Shown: in pieces, positions 11,549 to 57,776 of the stretch | Position numbering within the stretch: the first letter of the stretch is position 1 | Layout: each line of letters begins with the position of its first letter | NCBI GenBank assembly: GCA_023511915.1 | Contig: JAIMAN010000003.1 | Span: 1,049 to 65,048 of the forward strand | Source: Armatimonadota bacterium | GTDB taxonomy: Bacteria; Armatimonadota; Fimbriimonadia; Fimbriimonadales; GBS-DC | Reading direction: 5' to 3' | DNA length: 64,000 bases | Made by a program: the position numbers and the translations under genes | The notes under the pieces: generated by a model | Databases searched by the model: none | What the model saw: the letters and a program-made list of their open reading frames with translations, nothing else | Told to the model about the DNA's origin: nothing

Positions 11549-12331
11549 ATGACGCAAGCACAACTTGGGACGCAACCGACCGCAGGCGACGGAGCGGCGA
11601 CAGAGTTCGTGGTGCGCGTGCGCGATGTGGTCAAAGAGTACCAGATGGGCAAACTGACCGTGCGCGCGCTCGACGGCGTGAACCTCGACATCTATCGCGG
11701 CGAGTACCTGTCGATTATGGGACCCTCGGGGTCGGGCAAAAGCACGCTGTTCAACATGATTGGCGGGCTGGACAAGCCGACTTCAGGGTCGGTGTTCATC
11801 GACGATGTGGACATGGCGCAGCTCGATCCGCAGGAGCTGGCGTTTTTGCGCTGCCATCGGATTGGCTACATCTTCCAGACCTTCAACCTAATCCCCGTGA
11901 TGACCGCGCTGGAGAATGTGACGCTGCCGATGGTGTTCGCGGGCGTCAACGCCGACGAGGCGCGCGAGCGCGGGGTGGAGCTGCTGACGCTGGTCGGGCT
12001 GGGCGGACGCCTGCACCACAAGCCAACCGAGCTGTCAGGCGGGCAGCAGCAGCGCGTCGCCATCGCACGCTCCCTCGCGAATAACCCCTCCATTATCCTC
12101 GCCGACGAGCCAACAGGCAACCTCGACCTCAAAACAGGCAAGGAAATCATCGAGCTGCTCAAGCGACTCAACAAAGAGCGCGGCGTGACGATTATCTCCG
12201 CCACGCACGACCTCAAGATGCTCGACATCTCCGACCGCATCGTGTGGATTCGCGACGGCAAGATTGAGCGCATCGAGAAGCGCAGCGAGCTGCAACTCAA
12301 GGTCGGCGAGGTGGAAGGCGAAGCGGGCTAA
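11549..12331 (+). CDS. ABC transporter ATP-binding protein (LolD/MacB-like)
   Basis: GPSGSGKS, LSGGQQQRVAIAR, ILADEPTGNLD, ATHD. Confidence 0.93.
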   Translation: MTQAQLGTQPTAGDGAATEFVVRVRDVVKEYQMGKLTVRALDGVNLDIYRGEYLSIMGPSGSGKSTLFNMIGGLDKPTSGSVFIDDVDMAQLDPQELAFLRCHRIGYIFQTFNLIPVMTALENVTLPMVFAGVNADEARERGVELLTLVGLGGRLHHKPTELSGGQQQRVAIARSLANNPSIILADEPTGNLDLKTGKEIIELLKRLNKERGVTIISATHDLKMLDISDRIVWIRDGKIERIEKRSELQLKVGEVEGEAG

Positions 12332-13221
12332 TGGACGCCTACATCGACGGGTTTCTGGACTATCTGGCGCAGGAGCGGCAGGCGTCGGCGCACACGGTGA
12401 ACGCCTACGCTGTCGACCTGCGCCAGTTCTGCGACTACCTGCAGCGATCAGGGCGCGCCGACCCCGCCGACTGGGACGCCACGCTTTGGGAAGGATTTAT
12501 GCACTACCTGCGCCGACGGTCGATGAGCGAATCCAGCATCGCGCGTAAGCTCAGCGCGGCGCGGGCATTCCTCAAGCACCTCTATCGGCGCGGGGTACTG
12601 GAACACGAGCCGCCCGACGCGCTGGCGACCCCGCGCGTACATCGCGCCCTGCCCAGCACGCTCACCCCGCACGAACTGCGCCGCCTGCTGCTCCAGCCCC
12701 CGCTGGACACGCCGTATGGACTGCGCGACCGCACGATGCTGGAGACGATGTATACCACAGGCATGCGCGTCTCGGAACTGCTCGGCGTGACGCTGGAGCA
12801 GTTGAACCTCAGCGAGGCGTTGGTGCGCGTGGTGGGCAAGCGCGGGCGCGAACGGTGGCTGCCCCTGCCCGACGGCACGGTCTACTGGGTGCAACGGTAT
12901 CTCAGCGACGCGCGCCCCAAACTCGCCCGCCCCAAACGCCCCTGCAACGCGCTGTTTCTGAACGACCGCGGCGCGCCGCTGAGCCGAATCAGCTTCTGGA
13001 ACAAACTCAAAGAGTACGCCGCCAGCGCAGGCATCGAGAAAGCCATCTCGCCGCACACCCTGCGCCACTCGTTCGCCGTGCATCTGCTCAACGGCGGAGC
13101 AGACCTGCGCGCCGTGCAGGAACTGCTCGGACACGAAGACATCAGCACCACCCAAATCTACACCCAAGTCAGCCTCGATCGCCTCAAAGAGGTCTACAAA
13201 AAGGCGCATCCGCGGGGCTAA
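12331..13221 (+). CDS. xerD: tyrosine recombinase XerD/XerC
   Basis: TGMRVSEL, HTLRHSFA, VQELLGHEDISTTQIY, AHPR end. Confidence 0.88.
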   Translation: MDAYIDGFLDYLAQERQASAHTVNAYAVDLRQFCDYLQRSGRADPADWDATLWEGFMHYLRRRSMSESSIARKLSAARAFLKHLYRRGVLEHEPPDALATPRVHRALPSTLTPHELRRLLLQPPLDTPYGLRDRTMLETMYTTGMRVSELLGVTLEQLNLSEALVRVVGKRGRERWLPLPDGTVYWVQRYLSDARPKLARPKRPCNALFLNDRGAPLSRISFWNKLKEYAASAGIEKAISPHTLRHSFAVHLLNGGADLRAVQELLGHEDISTTQIYTQVSLDRLKEVYKKAHPRG

Positions 13222-13223
13222 GC

Positions 13224-15458
13224 CTACTCATACTGCCGCAGCATCTGCTCGGCTTCGGCGCGGGTGACCAGCACTTGGCGGGGTTTCGCGCCGTCCAGCG
13301 GTCCCACGATGCCCCGCCGCTCCATCAAGTCCAGCAACCGCGCGGCGCGCCCGTAGCCGATTTTGAACCGCCGCTGCAGCATCGAGGTGGACGCCTGCCC
13401 GTGCGCGACCACCAAGCGCACCGCCGCAGGGTACAGTTCGTCGTCGGCGTCGTCCTCCTCGAACTCGCCGCCGACGGGCGCGTCGAAGTCGGTCGGGTGC
13501 AGTAGGTAGGTCGGCGATTCCTGCGCACGCCAGAAGTCCGCCAACGCCTCAATCTCGGCTTCCGTCACGAAGCAGCCCTGGATGCGCGTCGGCTTGGAAG
13601 CGTCAATCGGCAAAAACAGCATATCACCGCGCCCCAGCAGCCGCTCCGCGCCGACCATGTCCAGGATCGTGCGGCTGTCCACCTGGCTGGAGACGGCGAA
13701 CGCGATTCGGCTGGCGATGTTCGCCTTGATTGTGCCCGTGATGACATCGACGGAGGGGCGCTGCGTGGCGATGACGAGGTGGATGCCCGTTGCGCGGGCA
13801 AGTTGCGCCAGCCGCGCGATGGAGGTCTCCACCTCCGACGCGGCTTGCATCATCAGGTCTGCCAACTCGTCGATGATGACCACCACATACGGCAGGCGTT
13901 CGTCGTCGGGGGCGCGCTCGTTGTAGCCCTGAATGTTGCGCACGCCCTTCTCGGCGAACAGGTCGTACCGCCTGTCCATCTCCTTAAGCAGGGCGCGCAG
14001 CGCGCCCGCCGCCAACTTCACATCGCGCACCACAGGGCACATCAGGTGCGGGATGCCGTCAAACAGCGTCAGCTCCACGCGCTTGGGGTCGATCATCACG
14101 AAGCGCAACTCGCGCGGGGTGGCGCGGAACAGCAGGCAGGCAATCATCGACAGCAGGCACATGCTCTTGCCTGAGTTGGTCGCACCGCCAATCAGCAGGT
14201 GCGGCATGCGCGACAGGTCGGCGTACTTGGGCGCGCCTGCGACATCCTTGCCCAGCGCGACGGTCAGCAGGCTCGGCGCGTTCCAGAACTCGGCGTTCTC
14301 CATCACCTCGCGCAAGGCGACCACATGCGGGTGGTCGTTGGGCACTTCCACGCCGATTGCGCTCTTGCCAGGGATGGGCGCCTCCACGCGCACGGCGATT
14401 GCCGCCAACGCCATCGCGAGGTTGTCCGCCAAGTTCACCACGCGATTAACCTTGATGCCTGGCGCGAGTTGAATCTCGTAGCGGGTGACGGTCGGTCCGT
14501 GCGCCACTTCCACCACATTCGCGTCGATGCCGAAGTCCTGCAGGGTCTCTTCCAGTTTGGCGATTTTCTCTTTGATTTCGGCTTGGTTGCGTTTGGGCGG
14601 CGCGGGCGGCTCGCGCAGCAGCGACAAGGGGGGCAAGGTGTAGTTGCCCGACGCGCTGGGGGTGGGCAGGTCGGGTTTGGGCGCGTCGCGCGTGTCGGCG
14701 GGGGCGGTATCGGCGACGGGTGTGTTGGCGTGTTCGGCGTGGGGTGTGTCGCCGCGGCGGGTCGCTGTGTCGGTTGTGCGCGGGGCGACGACGGCGCGCT
14801 CTGGGAGGCTCTGCCGTCGCTCGTCGCTCTTACGCTGCGCACGCTCGGAGACCTTGCCCGCGGCAGTGGCGACCGCTTTGGTGGCGGTGGACGCGCCGCG
14901 CCAGCCGTGCCACATCGCGCGCCCGACCCCGCGCAACACCTGCGCCAGCGGCAGGTTGAACAGCATCAGCAGCCCCAGCACGCCCAGCGCGCCCAACACC
15001 ACGCCCTTCGCCTGACCCAGCGCAAGGTGCAGCGTATAGCCCAATACCGCGCCGAGATACCCACCCGACGCCCGCAGCGCGTCCGCTGCGAACCAGTCGC
15101 CCGACGCGCCAGGCTGCGCCAGCCAGCCCAGCAGCGCAAGGTACACGATTAGACCGCCCGTCAGCACTTCGGGCAGCGCGAGTTTGCCGTAGCCGAACAC
15201 CAGCGCGCCCGCCGCGACCCACAGCACCACAGGCAGCAGGAACGCGCCGTTGCCAAACAGCAGTTTCAGCCCGTCGCGCAGCGCCGCGCCCATCACCCCG
15301 CTGTTGGGCACGGTCAGGCTCACTAACGCCACCAGCCCCAGCAGCGCGAGTCCAATCGCGATGCGGTCGTAAAACTGCTGCGGTCGCTCCTTCGGCGCGT
15401 CGGCGACCTTGCGCTTGCCCGCGCTGCGCGCCTTGCCGTTGCGTTTCTTGGACGCCAT
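13224..15458 (-). CDS. ftsK: DNA translocase FtsK/SpoIIIE
   Basis: N-terminal TMs, GATNSGKS, IIDELADLMM, ATQRPSVDVITG, gamma domain LQRRFKIGYGRAARL. Confidence 0.96.
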   Translation of the reverse strand: MASKKRNGKARSAGKRKVADAPKERPQQFYDRIAIGLALLGLVALVSLTVPNSGVMGAALRDGLKLLFGNGAFLLPVVLWVAAGALVFGYGKLALPEVLTGGLIVYLALLGWLAQPGASGDWFAADALRASGGYLGAVLGYTLHLALGQAKGVVLGALGVLGLLMLFNLPLAQVLRGVGRAMWHGWRGASTATKAVATAAGKVSERAQRKSDERRQSLPERAVVAPRTTDTATRRGDTPHAEHANTPVADTAPADTRDAPKPDLPTPSASGNYTLPPLSLLREPPAPPKRNQAEIKEKIAKLEETLQDFGIDANVVEVAHGPTVTRYEIQLAPGIKVNRVVNLADNLAMALAAIAVRVEAPIPGKSAIGVEVPNDHPHVVALREVMENAEFWNAPSLLTVALGKDVAGAPKYADLSRMPHLLIGGATNSGKSMCLLSMIACLLFRATPRELRFVMIDPKRVELTLFDGIPHLMCPVVRDVKLAAGALRALLKEMDRRYDLFAEKGVRNIQGYNERAPDDERLPYVVVIIDELADLMMQAASEVETSIARLAQLARATGIHLVIATQRPSVDVITGTIKANIASRIAFAVSSQVDSRTILDMVGAERLLGRGDMLFLPIDASKPTRIQGCFVTEAEIEALADFWRAQESPTYLLHPTDFDAPVGGEFEEDDADDELYPAAVRLVVAHGQASTSMLQRRFKIGYGRAARLLDLMERRGIVGPLDGAKPRQVLVTRAEAEQMLRQYE

Positions 15459-15554
15459 GCTCTCACCCAGCCTGTTGCGCACGGAATCGTGCGCCAGCCC
15501 TACCGATTGTACCCGATAGGGACAGGTTTCGCAACGGGGCGCGCGCGGTAGGCG

Positions 15555-48086: not shown

Positions 48087-49241
48087 ATGCGACTGGGCGT
48101 TTTGCGAGAGACCTACCCGAACGAGCGGCGTGTCGCGCTCATCCCTGCGCTTGCGCCGATGTACGCGAAACTCGGCTTTGAGGTGCTGGTGCAATCGGGC
48201 GCGGGCGAGGGCGCGCGCCACACCGACGACGCCTATCGTCAGGCGGGCGCGACCGTGCTGCCCACGCGCGAGGAAGTGCTGGCGCAGGCGGATGTTGTGC
48301 TGACTGTGCGCACCGCAGGCGCGAACCCGAACATCGAGGCGGACTTGCCGCACATCCGCGCGGGGCAAATCTGGGTCGGTTTTATGGAGCCGCTGTACCG
48401 TCCGCAGGGCGTGCAGCAACTCGCCGAGCGCGGGGCGACTGCCTTCGCGATGGAACTCATCCCGCGCATCACCCGCGCGCAGAGCATGGACGCGCTCTCG
48501 TCGATGGCGACGGTGGCGGGCTACAAGGCGGTGCTGTTGGCGGCGCACCTGTCGCCGCGCATGTTCCCGCTGCTGATGAGCGCGGCGGGCACGGTCTCGC
48601 CTGCGCGGGTGTTCGTGATTGGCGCGGGCGTGGCGGGCTTGCAGGCGATGGCGACCGCCAAGCGGCTCGGCGCAGCCGTGTCGGGCTACGATGTGCGCCC
48701 CGCCACGCGCGACCAAGTCGAAAGCGTCGGCGCGAAGTTCGTCGAAATCCCGCTGCAGGTCGAGCAGGCGGAGGCGTCGGGCGGCTACGCGCGCGCCCTT
48801 GAGGAAGAGACCCTGCGCCGTCAGCAAGACCTGCTCGGCGAACACCTCGTGCAGCACGAGGTGGTGATCACCACCGCCGCCGTGCCGGGCAAGCGCGCGC
48901 CGCTGCTCATCCCGCGCCGCGTGGTGGAAGCGATGCCCGCAGGCAGCATAATTATCGACCTCGCTGCCGAGTGGGGCGGCAACTGCGAACTGACCCAGCC
49001 TGGCGAGACCGTCCAGCACGCGGGCGTGACAATTGTCGGCGCAGTGAACCTGCCCGCGACTGCGCCCGTAGACGCCAGCATGCTCTACAGCCGCAACCTC
49101 TACAACCTGCTCGCGCACCTGCACAAAGTCGGCATGCTGCCCACCCCCGCGCCCGATCACGAGGACGAAATCGCCCGCGAGACTCTGGTCGCGCACGGCG
49201 GCAGAATCACCCACCCGCGCGTGATGCAGCGCGTTGAATAA
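48087..49241 (+). CDS. pntA: NAD(P) transhydrogenase subunit alpha, soluble part (alpha1)
   Basis: ERRVAL, RITRAQSMDALSS, GAGVAGLQA, GGNCE. Confidence 0.95.
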   Translation: MRLGVLRETYPNERRVALIPALAPMYAKLGFEVLVQSGAGEGARHTDDAYRQAGATVLPTREEVLAQADVVLTVRTAGANPNIEADLPHIRAGQIWVGFMEPLYRPQGVQQLAERGATAFAMELIPRITRAQSMDALSSMATVAGYKAVLLAAHLSPRMFPLLMSAAGTVSPARVFVIGAGVAGLQAMATAKRLGAAVSGYDVRPATRDQVESVGAKFVEIPLQVEQAEASGGYARALEEETLRRQQDLLGEHLVQHEVVITTAAVPGKRAPLLIPRRVVEAMPAGSIIIDLAAEWGGNCELTQPGETVQHAGVTIVGAVNLPATAPVDASMLYSRNLYNLLAHLHKVGMLPTPAPDHEDEIARETLVAHGGRITHPRVMQRVE

Positions 49242-56490: not shown

Positions 56491-57717
56491 TCAGGGTTTT
56501 CGCGCCGCGCCGCTGGTGCGGATTGTGCCTGCGGGCGCGACGGGGAGCGTCCATGCCGCCAGCGCGAGCGCAATCACCAGGTCGTCGTGGACGCCCGACG
56601 CGCCCTCCAGTCGCACGCCGCGCGCGGTCGGCGTCGCCTCAAAGTGGTACAACTCGCGCAGCAGGTCATGGTCGGGCAGCAGTTGCAGGCGTTCCTGTTC
56701 CAGCATCAGCGCGAGGTTCTCGATAAGGCTCTGCTTGAGCGTCTGGGTGAAGGCGACGCCTTCGGCATAGGGGAACTCGCGCTGCAGGCTCTCCAGCAGG
56801 GGGTCGCCGACGCCTGTGCGGTCGCAGAGGATTCGCGCGGGGGCGTGCTGGCGCAACTGCGCTGCGACCGCGCTGACCTGCTCCGCCCACGACAGCCCCT
56901 GCCAGCGGCGGACGGCGAGCAGTTTCGCGCCGTCCCGCGCGCCCTGCAGCACTGCCAGCGCCGTGTAGTCGCGATAGCGCGCCCAGTCCACCCCCGCCAC
57001 AACCAGCCCCGCGTCGGGCAGCCGCAACAGCAGCGCGCGATCCACCCACTCTGTGCGGAACACCTGCCCCTCCGCGTCCAGGAACGCCGCGCCGTACTCG
57101 ATCTGATACTGGCGCTGGGTCATCATGCTGGCTTGCATCTGCAGCACGGTGGGCGAGAGCAGCGGGTTGTGCCACGAGGGGCTGCGCAGGCTCCAGACGC
57201 GGATGCCGTCCTCTTGCCCCTGCAGGTAGTAGCGGTAGAAGTAGTTTTTGCCGCGCGGGGTGGAAATCAGCGCGAGTCGTCCGCCCGTGTCGGCGAGCAT
57301 CGGGGTCAGCACTTCGGCGACGACCGCTTCGGGCACATAAGCCGCCTCGTCGACGACAATCAGGTGCGCCTTGCGCCCGCGTAGGAACATCCCGCCCCGC
57401 GCGGCGGCGCGCGCCCACAGCCGCGCGTCGCCCAGCGCGAGCGTCGGCGCAGGCGTGCGCCGTACCGTCGGACGCGCCCCCGCACGGTGCAGAAACTCCA
57501 GCGCACGCTCGAACCCCAGCATCGCCTGCTCCTGCGACGGCGCGACCAGCAGCACTTGGCGCGGCGCGCCCGTAAGCAGCGCGCGGGCAATCTCCGCCGC
57601 GATGACCTCCGTCTTGCCCCACCGCCTGCCGCACGCCAGCACGCGCACAGGCGCACGACTGCTCAAAAACGCCTGCTGCCCCAGATGCGGACGCCACCCA
57701 GAAAACACGGCAATCAC
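56491..57717 (-). CDS. phage terminase large subunit-like protein (orphan)
   Basis: Walker A GRRWGKT, Walker B LIVVDEAAY, coupling motif ISTPRG, RNase H-like GVDWA..D, DRTGVG, HDDLVIALALA. Confidence 0.9.
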   Translation of the reverse strand: MIAVFSGWRPHLGQQAFLSSRAPVRVLACGRRWGKTEVIAAEIARALLTGAPRQVLLVAPSQEQAMLGFERALEFLHRAGARPTVRRTPAPTLALGDARLWARAAARGGMFLRGRKAHLIVVDEAAYVPEAVVAEVLTPMLADTGGRLALISTPRGKNYFYRYYLQGQEDGIRVWSLRSPSWHNPLLSPTVLQMQASMMTQRQYQIEYGAAFLDAEGQVFRTEWVDRALLLRLPDAGLVVAGVDWARYRDYTALAVLQGARDGAKLLAVRRWQGLSWAEQVSAVAAQLRQHAPARILCDRTGVGDPLLESLQREFPYAEGVAFTQTLKQSLIENLALMLEQERLQLLPDHDLLRELYHFEATPTARGVRLEGASGVHDDLVIALALAAWTLPVAPAGTIRTSGAARKP

Positions 57718-57776
57718 TCCCCCTGCCGATTCCGTCAGCAGGAACCGCTGCAGGCAACCGTGAAATTGGGGGCACG

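Follow-up and report, generated by a model that had tools for sequence, protein, structure and literature searches.

A phage-type terminase gene in the chromosome of this Armatimonadota bacterium almost certainly belongs to a domesticated, co-regulated module of Mu-type phage-head genes that is inherited with the chromosome in a large part of the phylum. The best reading of this module, to which we give a probability of roughly 0.55, is that of an SOS-induced, tail-less viriform resembling gene transfer agents (GTAs). The genomes document the parts of the module, their co-inheritance and co-loss, purifying selection on them and common motifs upstream. An earlier note, made from the letters of the DNA, had proposed that the terminase was part of a dispersed GTA or co-opted for a cellular role; the idea of a dispersed, domesticated packaging system held in every proposed check that was runnable (conservation, tree, selection and the other genes). 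Genomes (G), contigs (C), loci (L) and families (f) are cited below by our own labels.

The terminase gene

The window is the whole 64,000-nucleotide stretch of DNA that was analysed. Positions of the features related to the terminase are as follows.

56491..57717, minus strand: terminase large subunit (TerL), ATPase and RNase H-like nuclease, 408 aa, GTG start, single open frame; the sole part of the module within the window
57733..57760, minus strand: promoter-like motif GTTG(A/C)C-N15-TRNC, 13-15 nt before the TerL start
57610..57630, minus strand: Walker A GRRWGKT, aa 30-36; GRRWGK kept in 58/59 orthologues, with one gap
57343..57360, minus strand: Walker B IVVDEA, aa 120-125; D123 and E124 in 59/59 orthologues
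57256..57264, minus strand: ATPase coupling motif STP, aa 152-154, from motif inspection and the orthologue alignment
56581..56988, minus strand: acidic residues of the nuclease, D244 (56986-56988), D299 (56821-56823) and D378/D379 (56581-56586)

The protein matched Terminase_6N (E 1.7e-9) and Terminase_6C (E 1.6e-14) in Pfam and the phrog_2 terminase large subunit in PHROGs (E 1.7e-39), and the best matches in a PDB sequence search were phage terminase large subunit domains (5m1q, E 1.7e-16; 4zni, E 6.8e-16). We take GRRWGKT to be the Walker A motif and STP the coupling motif. All the hallmarks of a terminase large subunit were found in this protein: Walker A, Walker B, the coupling motif and the RNase H-like acidic triad. 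The acidic residues aligned with the solved nuclease domain 5m1q, D244 and D299 being present in 59/59 orthologues and D378/D379 in 58/59. The intact ATPase and nuclease motifs reported in the earlier note were therefore all recovered, with key residues kept in 58-59 of the 59 orthologues. Its description of GC and codon use as host-like also agrees with our measurements (among 1751 genes, CAI ranks at the 64th percentile and GC3 at the 85th; GC of TerL 0.703 vs 0.642), as does the placement of the gene between rnhB and a fasciclin gene. Viral TerL matches that were found had an identity of at most 32%.

Two further observations of the note stood only in part. GGCC and CCGG are indeed lacking in the gene, but this is uninformative: given the genome's own depletion only 0.24 and 0.72 sites, respectively, are expected, so that their absence is expected by chance. 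Genome-wide, observed/expected ratios are 0.027 for ACGT, 0.031 for GGCC, 0.049 for CTAG, 0.12 for CCGG and 0.32 for GATC. The claim that the window lacks an integrase and att-like repeats overlooked a tyrosine recombinase at 12331-13221; this gene was rejected as an integrase, being the housekeeping XerD (over the NCBIfam cut-off) and located 43 kb from TerL, and the repeats within 54-60 kb of the window are short ones of the chance type only. No tRNA gene was found in the 64-kb window. Elsewhere in the window, an ftsK-like gene, recognized by eye, directly follows xerD (12331-15482), and an N-terminal part of pntA (48087-49241, 384 aa) has no other transhydrogenase gene adjoining it.

Other parts of the module in the genome

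The source genome (G000) is assembled in 122 contigs, and the module is scattered over at least six of them, the TerL contig included. The other parts are the following.

C4:3275-4342: Mu-type portal (PF06074, E 3.7e-67)
C86:54049-56186: operon of protease/scaffold (phrog_976, E 1.2e-8), cement (phrog_1731, E 2.6e-31) and major capsid (PF10124, E 2.5e-61)
C101:27385-28758: neck operon of a 57-aa gene, two small membrane-type genes, adaptor and stopper (BLAST/profile homology and predicted folds)
C40:19539-21710: amidase (PF01510, E 2.5e-11) and small beta-rich genes
C120:12852-13265: 137-aa regulator with a sigma-70 region-4-like C-terminal domain (found via a weak copy of the promoter motif)

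The portal and capsid genes suspected to lie elsewhere in the genome were thus located, with the protease, on other contigs. The search that the note had suggested, for orphan portal, HK97 capsid, protease and tail genes, succeeded for portal, protease and capsid; the head is of Mu type (Portal_Mu, Mu-like gpT) and is not identified by profile as a member of the HK97 family, and no tail genes were detected. The parts lie between host genes, and no replication or integration genes of its own accompany the module. In the single-contig genome G012 the positions are 2.27 Mb for TerL, 1.23 for the portal, 1.41 for the capsid, 2.56 for the adaptor, 1.07 for the amidase and 2.85 for the regulator.

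The adaptor and stopper were missed by Pfam and PHROGs sequence searches. The predicted fold of the stopper (pLDDT 91) aligned with the Pam3 neck (VIA-align Z 9.9, rmsd 3.5, 81 aligned) and the best 23 matches listed in the fold search were almost all phage neck/closure proteins; Foldseek returned nothing under E 0.001 for this protein. The predicted adaptor fold aligned with HK97 gp6 at a middling Z of 7.4 (rmsd 3.9, 91 aligned). The 57-aa gene of the same operon is homologous to the gene located 3' of the capsid gene in related phages. The phage-type amidase of C40 was present in 26/28 members of family f1, and holin-like matches were weak (E 0.02).

The small beta-rich genes of C40 have homologues that come after the capsid gene in relatives. 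In some of these relatives, small beta-rich paralogues (118, 171 and 144 aa) and a protein of ~680 aa follow the capsid gene (L294:5361-7750, L295, L192:11449-13491). Neither the 680-aa nor the small beta-rich genes near the capsid gene matched a Pfam or PHROG family; look-alikes of the 680-aa protein in the ESM Atlas are DUF2334/DUF2194, which is a lead only, and our guess is that these proteins could decorate the capsid. Metatranscriptomes were considered as evidence for expression and discarded as uninformative, the four runs being contigs with coverage in each of the 30 bins of the capsid region and the flanking sequence.

Distribution, inheritance and loss

Among the 61 genomes of the order, TerL was present in 52, the portal in 52, the capsid in 50, the adaptor in 51 and the regulator in 52; all five parts were found in 47 genomes, none in 8 and some in 6. 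Single-copy conservation, which the earlier note had made a check, is thus borne out in the order, where 52/61 genomes have a TerL at the level of orthologues. Raw TerL matches numbered 54/61 before a prophage hit in G049 and a 34-aa fragment in G044 were removed. The presence table left out the TerL and portal hits of G049 (prophage-type, 25-35%) and weak fragments in G044 and G051, and the three f2 genomes were scored as module-less because their element has a different TerL type and tail-like genes; G054, an unpublished genome, was counted in the tallies and no conclusion depends on it alone. Across the phylum 92/201 genomes match TerL, prophage terminases included, and the adaptor profile matches 55/201, in families f1, f3, f5, f9, f15, f16, f18, f22, f25, f29 and f32.

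The layout of the module varies between families. TerL neighbours differ even inside the genus, which indicates that the dispersal is partly a general shuffling of genes in the family. In f3 and f5 the gene after TerL is in most cases an orthologue of the Mu-type portal of C4. In f9, f25 and f29 an intact cluster was found with the order terS, terL, portal, protease/scaffold, cement, capsid (Mu gpT-like), adaptor, stopper, holin-like gene and peptidoglycan hydrolase; neither a tail block nor an integrase was seen in these clusters, the stopper being directly followed by the lysis genes, and the hydrolase is of the Amidase_3, M23 or M15 type. The amidase of the source genome was unmatched in f5 (0/14), and its sole counterpart in f3 is linked to a prophage.

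TerL identity declines with kinship (71-88% within the genus, 49-70% within the family and 39-49% within the order), as does that of PriA. TerL and PriA distances were correlated (Mantel rho 0.94 for 23 genomes, 0.61 for the 15 genomes of the genus), and those of the module genes in general also tracked PriA, except for cement within the genus (rho 0.18). In a quick IQ-TREE analysis of 79 TerL rows (six near-duplicate viral rows and viral fragments below 330 aa omitted, viral rows cut to 520 aa), genera g1, g2 and g5, families f5, f16, f18, f25, f29 and f32 and the order each fell on one side of a branch with SH-aLRT of 98-100; f3 requires two changes, and one prophage TerL (G093) branches basally to the clade. 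The phylogeny test proposed in the note therefore came out in favour of inheritance with the host, genera, most families and the order being recovered. The median dN/dS within the genus was 0.150 for TerL (136 pairs), 0.064 for the capsid, 0.090 for the portal, 0.123 for the adaptor, 0.251 for the stopper and 0.097 for the amidase, compared to 0.153 for the PriA control, and seven module genes ranged from 0.06 to 0.25; selection on TerL, another of the suggested checks, is thus purifying and similar to that on PriA. The capsid tree (FastTree, with a long-branch warning) is not a clean host clade: two tailed viral contigs, L166 and L168, are nested within it, as is the f2 element, which is also tailed. 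This implies either an exchange of head genes with phages or repeated domestication. Combined, these results indicate that TerL and the module are inherited with the host chromosome under purifying selection, the capsid tree being less clean.

The head module is dispensable, since it is absent or broken in several genomes. All its parts are missing from G034, G043, G049, G051 and G044, which are 96-99% complete. In G001 five parts (TerL, portal, capsid, adaptor and amidase) contain a stop or are split, with PriA and the regulator whole; G020 has lost most parts, and TerL is split in G047 and G048. Two TerL copies located 155 kb apart were seen in G039 (L034, L035), one by the portal gene and one by an IS200-like transposase, both within the host clade.

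A common promoter motif, a regulator and a candidate SOS box

In family f1 the motif GTTG(A/C)C-N15-TRNC stands at fixed spacing 5' of the operons for TerL, portal, protease-capsid, neck and amidase, and it precedes TerL in 21/21 family members examined despite differing upstream neighbours. When each gene was left out in turn, the held-out sites scored above the 95th background percentile in 15/21 cases for TerL, 16/19 for the portal, 18/18 for the protease, 14/14 for the neck and 5/12 for the amidase. A genome-wide scan with the promoter matrix gave 104 hits, mostly intragenic, and no new member, the motif being too degenerate; outside family f1 only its first half is found. The motif is a putative promoter of the scattered operons.

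The 137-aa regulator was found in 52/61 genomes of the order; those without it are precisely the five genomes that lack the whole module, the three of f2, and G003, which is 68% complete. In the phylum it has matches in 42 genomes at E <2e-13, 40 of which also carry the adaptor, and the module-less G242 retains a copy interrupted by a stop. Families f32 (0/12) and f16 (0/8) gave no match to the regulator, though both carry head genes. In G195 and G179 a homologue of the regulator directly adjoins terS-terL. A SigH-like sigma factor (C76) was rejected as regulator for want of co-occurrence, being present in the module-less G044 and not found in G045. The gene of the regulator and dprA adjoin in tail-to-tail orientation in the source genome (L436:3774-5266), and an ESM Atlas look-alike cluster of the regulator (L436:4853-5266) is commonest in Hydrogenedentota.

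The promoter of the regulator holds the palindrome GTA(G/T)AC-N4-GT(A/C)TAC, the only perfect copy in the genome. It precedes the regulator in 50/58 loci compared to 59/2345 in the background, a count that is circular as the motif was derived from those regions. The palindrome was also found before recA in 3/5 genomes (absent in 2/5), and before lexA in 2/6 loci at up to 2 mismatches (absent in 3/6). Several genomes of f3 and f18 have it directly 5' of the protease operon, and in f2 it precedes the terminase operon. It further precedes a 182-aa gene, presumably resembling a single-strand annealing protein, and a 156-aa family-specific gene. The latter (C108:13471, with an SOS-like box) was considered as a member of the module and set aside, since it is confined to f1 (26/28). 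Loci with the palindrome include L521 (recA), L478/L480 (lexA), L522, G000:C70:10366 and C108:13964. Other LexA boxes have an AC-N4-GT core, and the palindrome is a candidate LexA box of Armatimonadota.

Searches for tail and small terminase genes

BLAST of 1211 proteins from related viral loci detected no tail gene in the source genome. When 95 profiles from related phages were used on the same genome, no tail cluster was matched; the seven hits were five head/packaging genes, the small post-capsid gene and one WD40 repeat. Tape measure, Dit, neck-1, the phrog_290 tail protein and the f2 tape-measure-like protein had no match in five genomes, four of them single-contig. Among these five, baseplate J and sheath were found in G053 only, far from the module; there they form a separate contractile-tail element (G053:C1:2410892-2428315). 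Most terminases require a small terminase. With a 7-sequence profile no convincing candidate for it appeared in the 61 genomes of the order (10 of them had weak HTH-like hits, none beside the module), and with a 17-sequence profile the best match in the source genome, at E 0.0038, was a long unrelated frame; terS beside TerL was seen only in the f9/f22/f25/f29 clade. The module is quite probably truly tail-less, although divergent tail genes could escape the searches used.

Related phages and elements

The tailed phage contigs L165, L166 and L168 have portal, protease, cement and capsid genes (capsid 47-52% identical) and the small post-capsid gene as in the module, and, unlike in the host module, these are followed in the closest phages by genes for neck, tube, tape measure and Dit. 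Among the 20 GenBank phage matches listed, identity did not exceed ~37%. One tailed phage, in five IMG/VR contigs (L167-L171), has a capsid 47% identical to that of the host module and a QueF-like gene; no terminase was found beside its portal within the fetched stretch.

All three genomes of family f2 carry a separate, apparently domesticated element (L356 in G036, L358-L359 in G029, L360-L361 in G033), split in two of the three. It includes a phrog_38-type TerL, a Mu portal, a capsid, a gp36-like adaptor and tube-, chaperone- and tape-measure-like genes, the tail-like ones of which PHROGs fails to name, and an SOS-like box precedes an 80-aa zinc-finger gene at its head. In family f32, extra tail-less head modules were found in G158 (L362-L363) and G174 (L365-L366, L368-L369), sister to the host copy in the capsid tree. 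They lie in islands with Prim-Pol, a serine recombinase (G174) or an AlpA-like gene (G158) and many restriction-modification/AbiE genes, and also on a 50-kb contig; a 471-aa gene of the G158 island matched no family, and an integrase is therefore not demonstrated for that island. These copies are candidate Mu-type capsid-forming satellites, their layout being like that of capsid-forming PICIs (cf-PICIs), whose heads leave the cell tail-less and acquire the tails of phages via adaptor and connector.

Proposed mechanism and alternative explanations

That the module works as a GTA, packing and delivering host DNA, appears slightly more probable than not. DNA damage would lift LexA repression of the regulator, which, through its sigma-70 region-4-like domain, would switch on the scattered operons via the GTTG(A/C)C-N15-TRNC promoter. 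Procapsids would assemble on the portal and be filled by TerL in headful packaging of host DNA, with no choice of sequence, no small terminase having been detected in the order; adaptor and stopper would then seal the head. Holin-like proteins and the amidase would lyse the cell, and the tail-less, DNA-filled heads released could serve neighbours as recombination template. Delivery is the weakest step and might use a phage-borrowed tail, as in cf-PICIs, or DNA uptake at the cell surface. A more elaborate version seems doubtful to us: a host-encoded, SOS-triggered GTA conserved in about ten families of the phylum, with neither tail nor small terminase of its own, whose closed heads would be completed with the tails of Armatimonadota phages (tail piracy by a chromosome), and whose head module would have been re-captured by the PICI-like islands of f32.

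The heads could instead serve against phages, by interfering with Mu-like phages through wrong-size capsids, tail sinks or mispackaging, or the module could kill damaged or infected cells, with transfer being incidental. We consider such a satellite-like role unlikely, though several observations speak for it: the gene set equals the packaging module of cf-PICIs minus HNH and TerS; the extra f32 copies sit in islands with a primase, a recombinase or AlpA-like gene and restriction-modification genes; the capsid lineage is common to the closest tailed phages; and the stopper, the would-be contact with a tail, evolves fastest. Defence genes are usually patchy and mobile, whereas the module follows the host tree, and it keeps intact ATPase and nuclease motifs, portal and stopper, as DNA-filled particles would require. 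It also seems rather improbable that the module is an ordinary tailed GTA, with tail genes at a further locus that are too divergent for the searches. GTA genes do occupy several loci in the systems covered by the cited sections of PMC9953437 and PMC11841831, the adaptor and stopper themselves escaped Pfam and PHROGs, the related f2 element has tail-like genes that PHROGs cannot name, and the source assembly is fragmented. Yet the tail queries stayed blank in five genomes save for the remote baseplate J and sheath of G053, the phage profiles recovered head clusters of the source genome and no tail cluster, and the intact clusters pass straight from stopper to lysis genes.

A device without transfer, such as DNA release into a biofilm, a decoy or a protein cage, would fit the lack of a delivery apparatus and the lineage-specific extra genes by the capsid gene, including the 680-aa protein whose only look-alikes are DUF2334-like; a protein cage, however, needs no conserved packaging motor, portal or stopper, and we regard this as very unlikely. 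That TerL is left over from a decaying prophage, or was co-opted on its own, is hardly probable at all. TerL stands alone in the window and is lost or broken in some lineages, but against this it is retained in single copy throughout the order with a housekeeping-level dN/dS and a host-congruent tree, is co-lost with four unlinked genes, shares their promoter motif and has only distant viral matches. A prophage would show phage genes in one stretch, an integrase, att sites, a patchy distribution and relaxed selection, none of which we found for TerL and the module, and the note's suggestion of a lone terminase with a cellular role is unsupported in view of the presence, co-loss and shared promoter motif of the other parts. 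The SOS-induced, tail-less GTA-like viriform is the reading that we compare below with known systems.

Comparison with known systems

GTAs are hard to distinguish from prophage remains and few lineages are recognized. The present module offers a full parts list, candidates for its regulator, promoter and SOS box, lineages that have lost it naturally and a sister element with a tail, and is thus directly testable. If its particles are tail-less and yet transfer DNA, this would be a new delivery route; if LexA drives the module, this would support the retention of GTAs for DNA repair. The open-access literature on Armatimonadota or Fimbriimonas GTAs, terminases, capsids or domestication yielded no description of the system; the cited part of the Fimbriimonas ginsengisoli genome report gives one 45.5-kb prophage (PMC4072686).

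In the sections of the sources cited here, known GTAs are multi-locus, vertically inherited and cell-lysing, with three families recognized (PMC9953437); a capsid with a tail is the norm, and the DNA-binding domain of TerS is lacking in known GTAs (PMC11841831); GTAs can provide repair templates, and the CcGTA repressor is RogA, a LexA-like protein without the cleavage residues (PMC9632790). As far as these sections describe RcGTA, CcGTA, BaGTA and BhGTA, the module is like them in its phage-derived head and packaging genes at several loci, vertical inheritance and purifying selection (PMC9953437, PMC11841831, PMC9632790), and also in its apparent lysis genes, a putative dedicated regulator, the lack of genes for replication or integration and a possible link to DNA repair. 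It differs from them in phylum and ancestor (Mu-type portal and capsid), and in that no tail genes or order-level small terminase were found. Unlike the RogA-repressed CcGTA, its regulator is apparently under direct LexA control. With an Armatimonadota host and a Mu-type portal and capsid, it falls outside the Rhodogtaviriformidae (RcGTA-type), whose head-tail cluster is homologous to that of RcGTA and found in Alphaproteobacteria. Its head genes are those of a Mu-like phage head module (Portal_Mu, Mu-like_Pro and Mu-like_gpT in Pfam).

The cf-PICIs are described, in the part of the preprint used here, as mobile islands of 10-18 kb with integrase, replication module, HNH and TerS, HK97-type, without lysis genes and packaging their own DNA (bioRxiv 10.1101/2025.02.11.637232). 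In common with them, the module has genes for capsid, protease, portal, adaptor, connector and terminase but none for a tail, and would likewise release closed tail-less heads. In contrast to them, it is chromosomal, split among host genes, Mu-type and equipped with lysis genes, with neither integrase nor primase, and TerS and HNH were not found; island features appear only in the extra f32 copies (G158, G174). FpGTA of Faecalibacterium is likewise a GTA-like operon from outside Proteobacteria and, in the account cited, seen as particles without identifiable tails (PMC12946183), but it encodes proteins of the short-tail, podovirus-like kind, whereas the neck of the module ends in a stopper of siphovirus/myovirus type. 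In conclusion, the genomes point to a module that is real, functionally constrained and not a prophage remnant, a putative member of the GTA/viriform kind and a variant of it, set apart by its tail-less build, missing TerS, regulator cascade and satellite-like copies.
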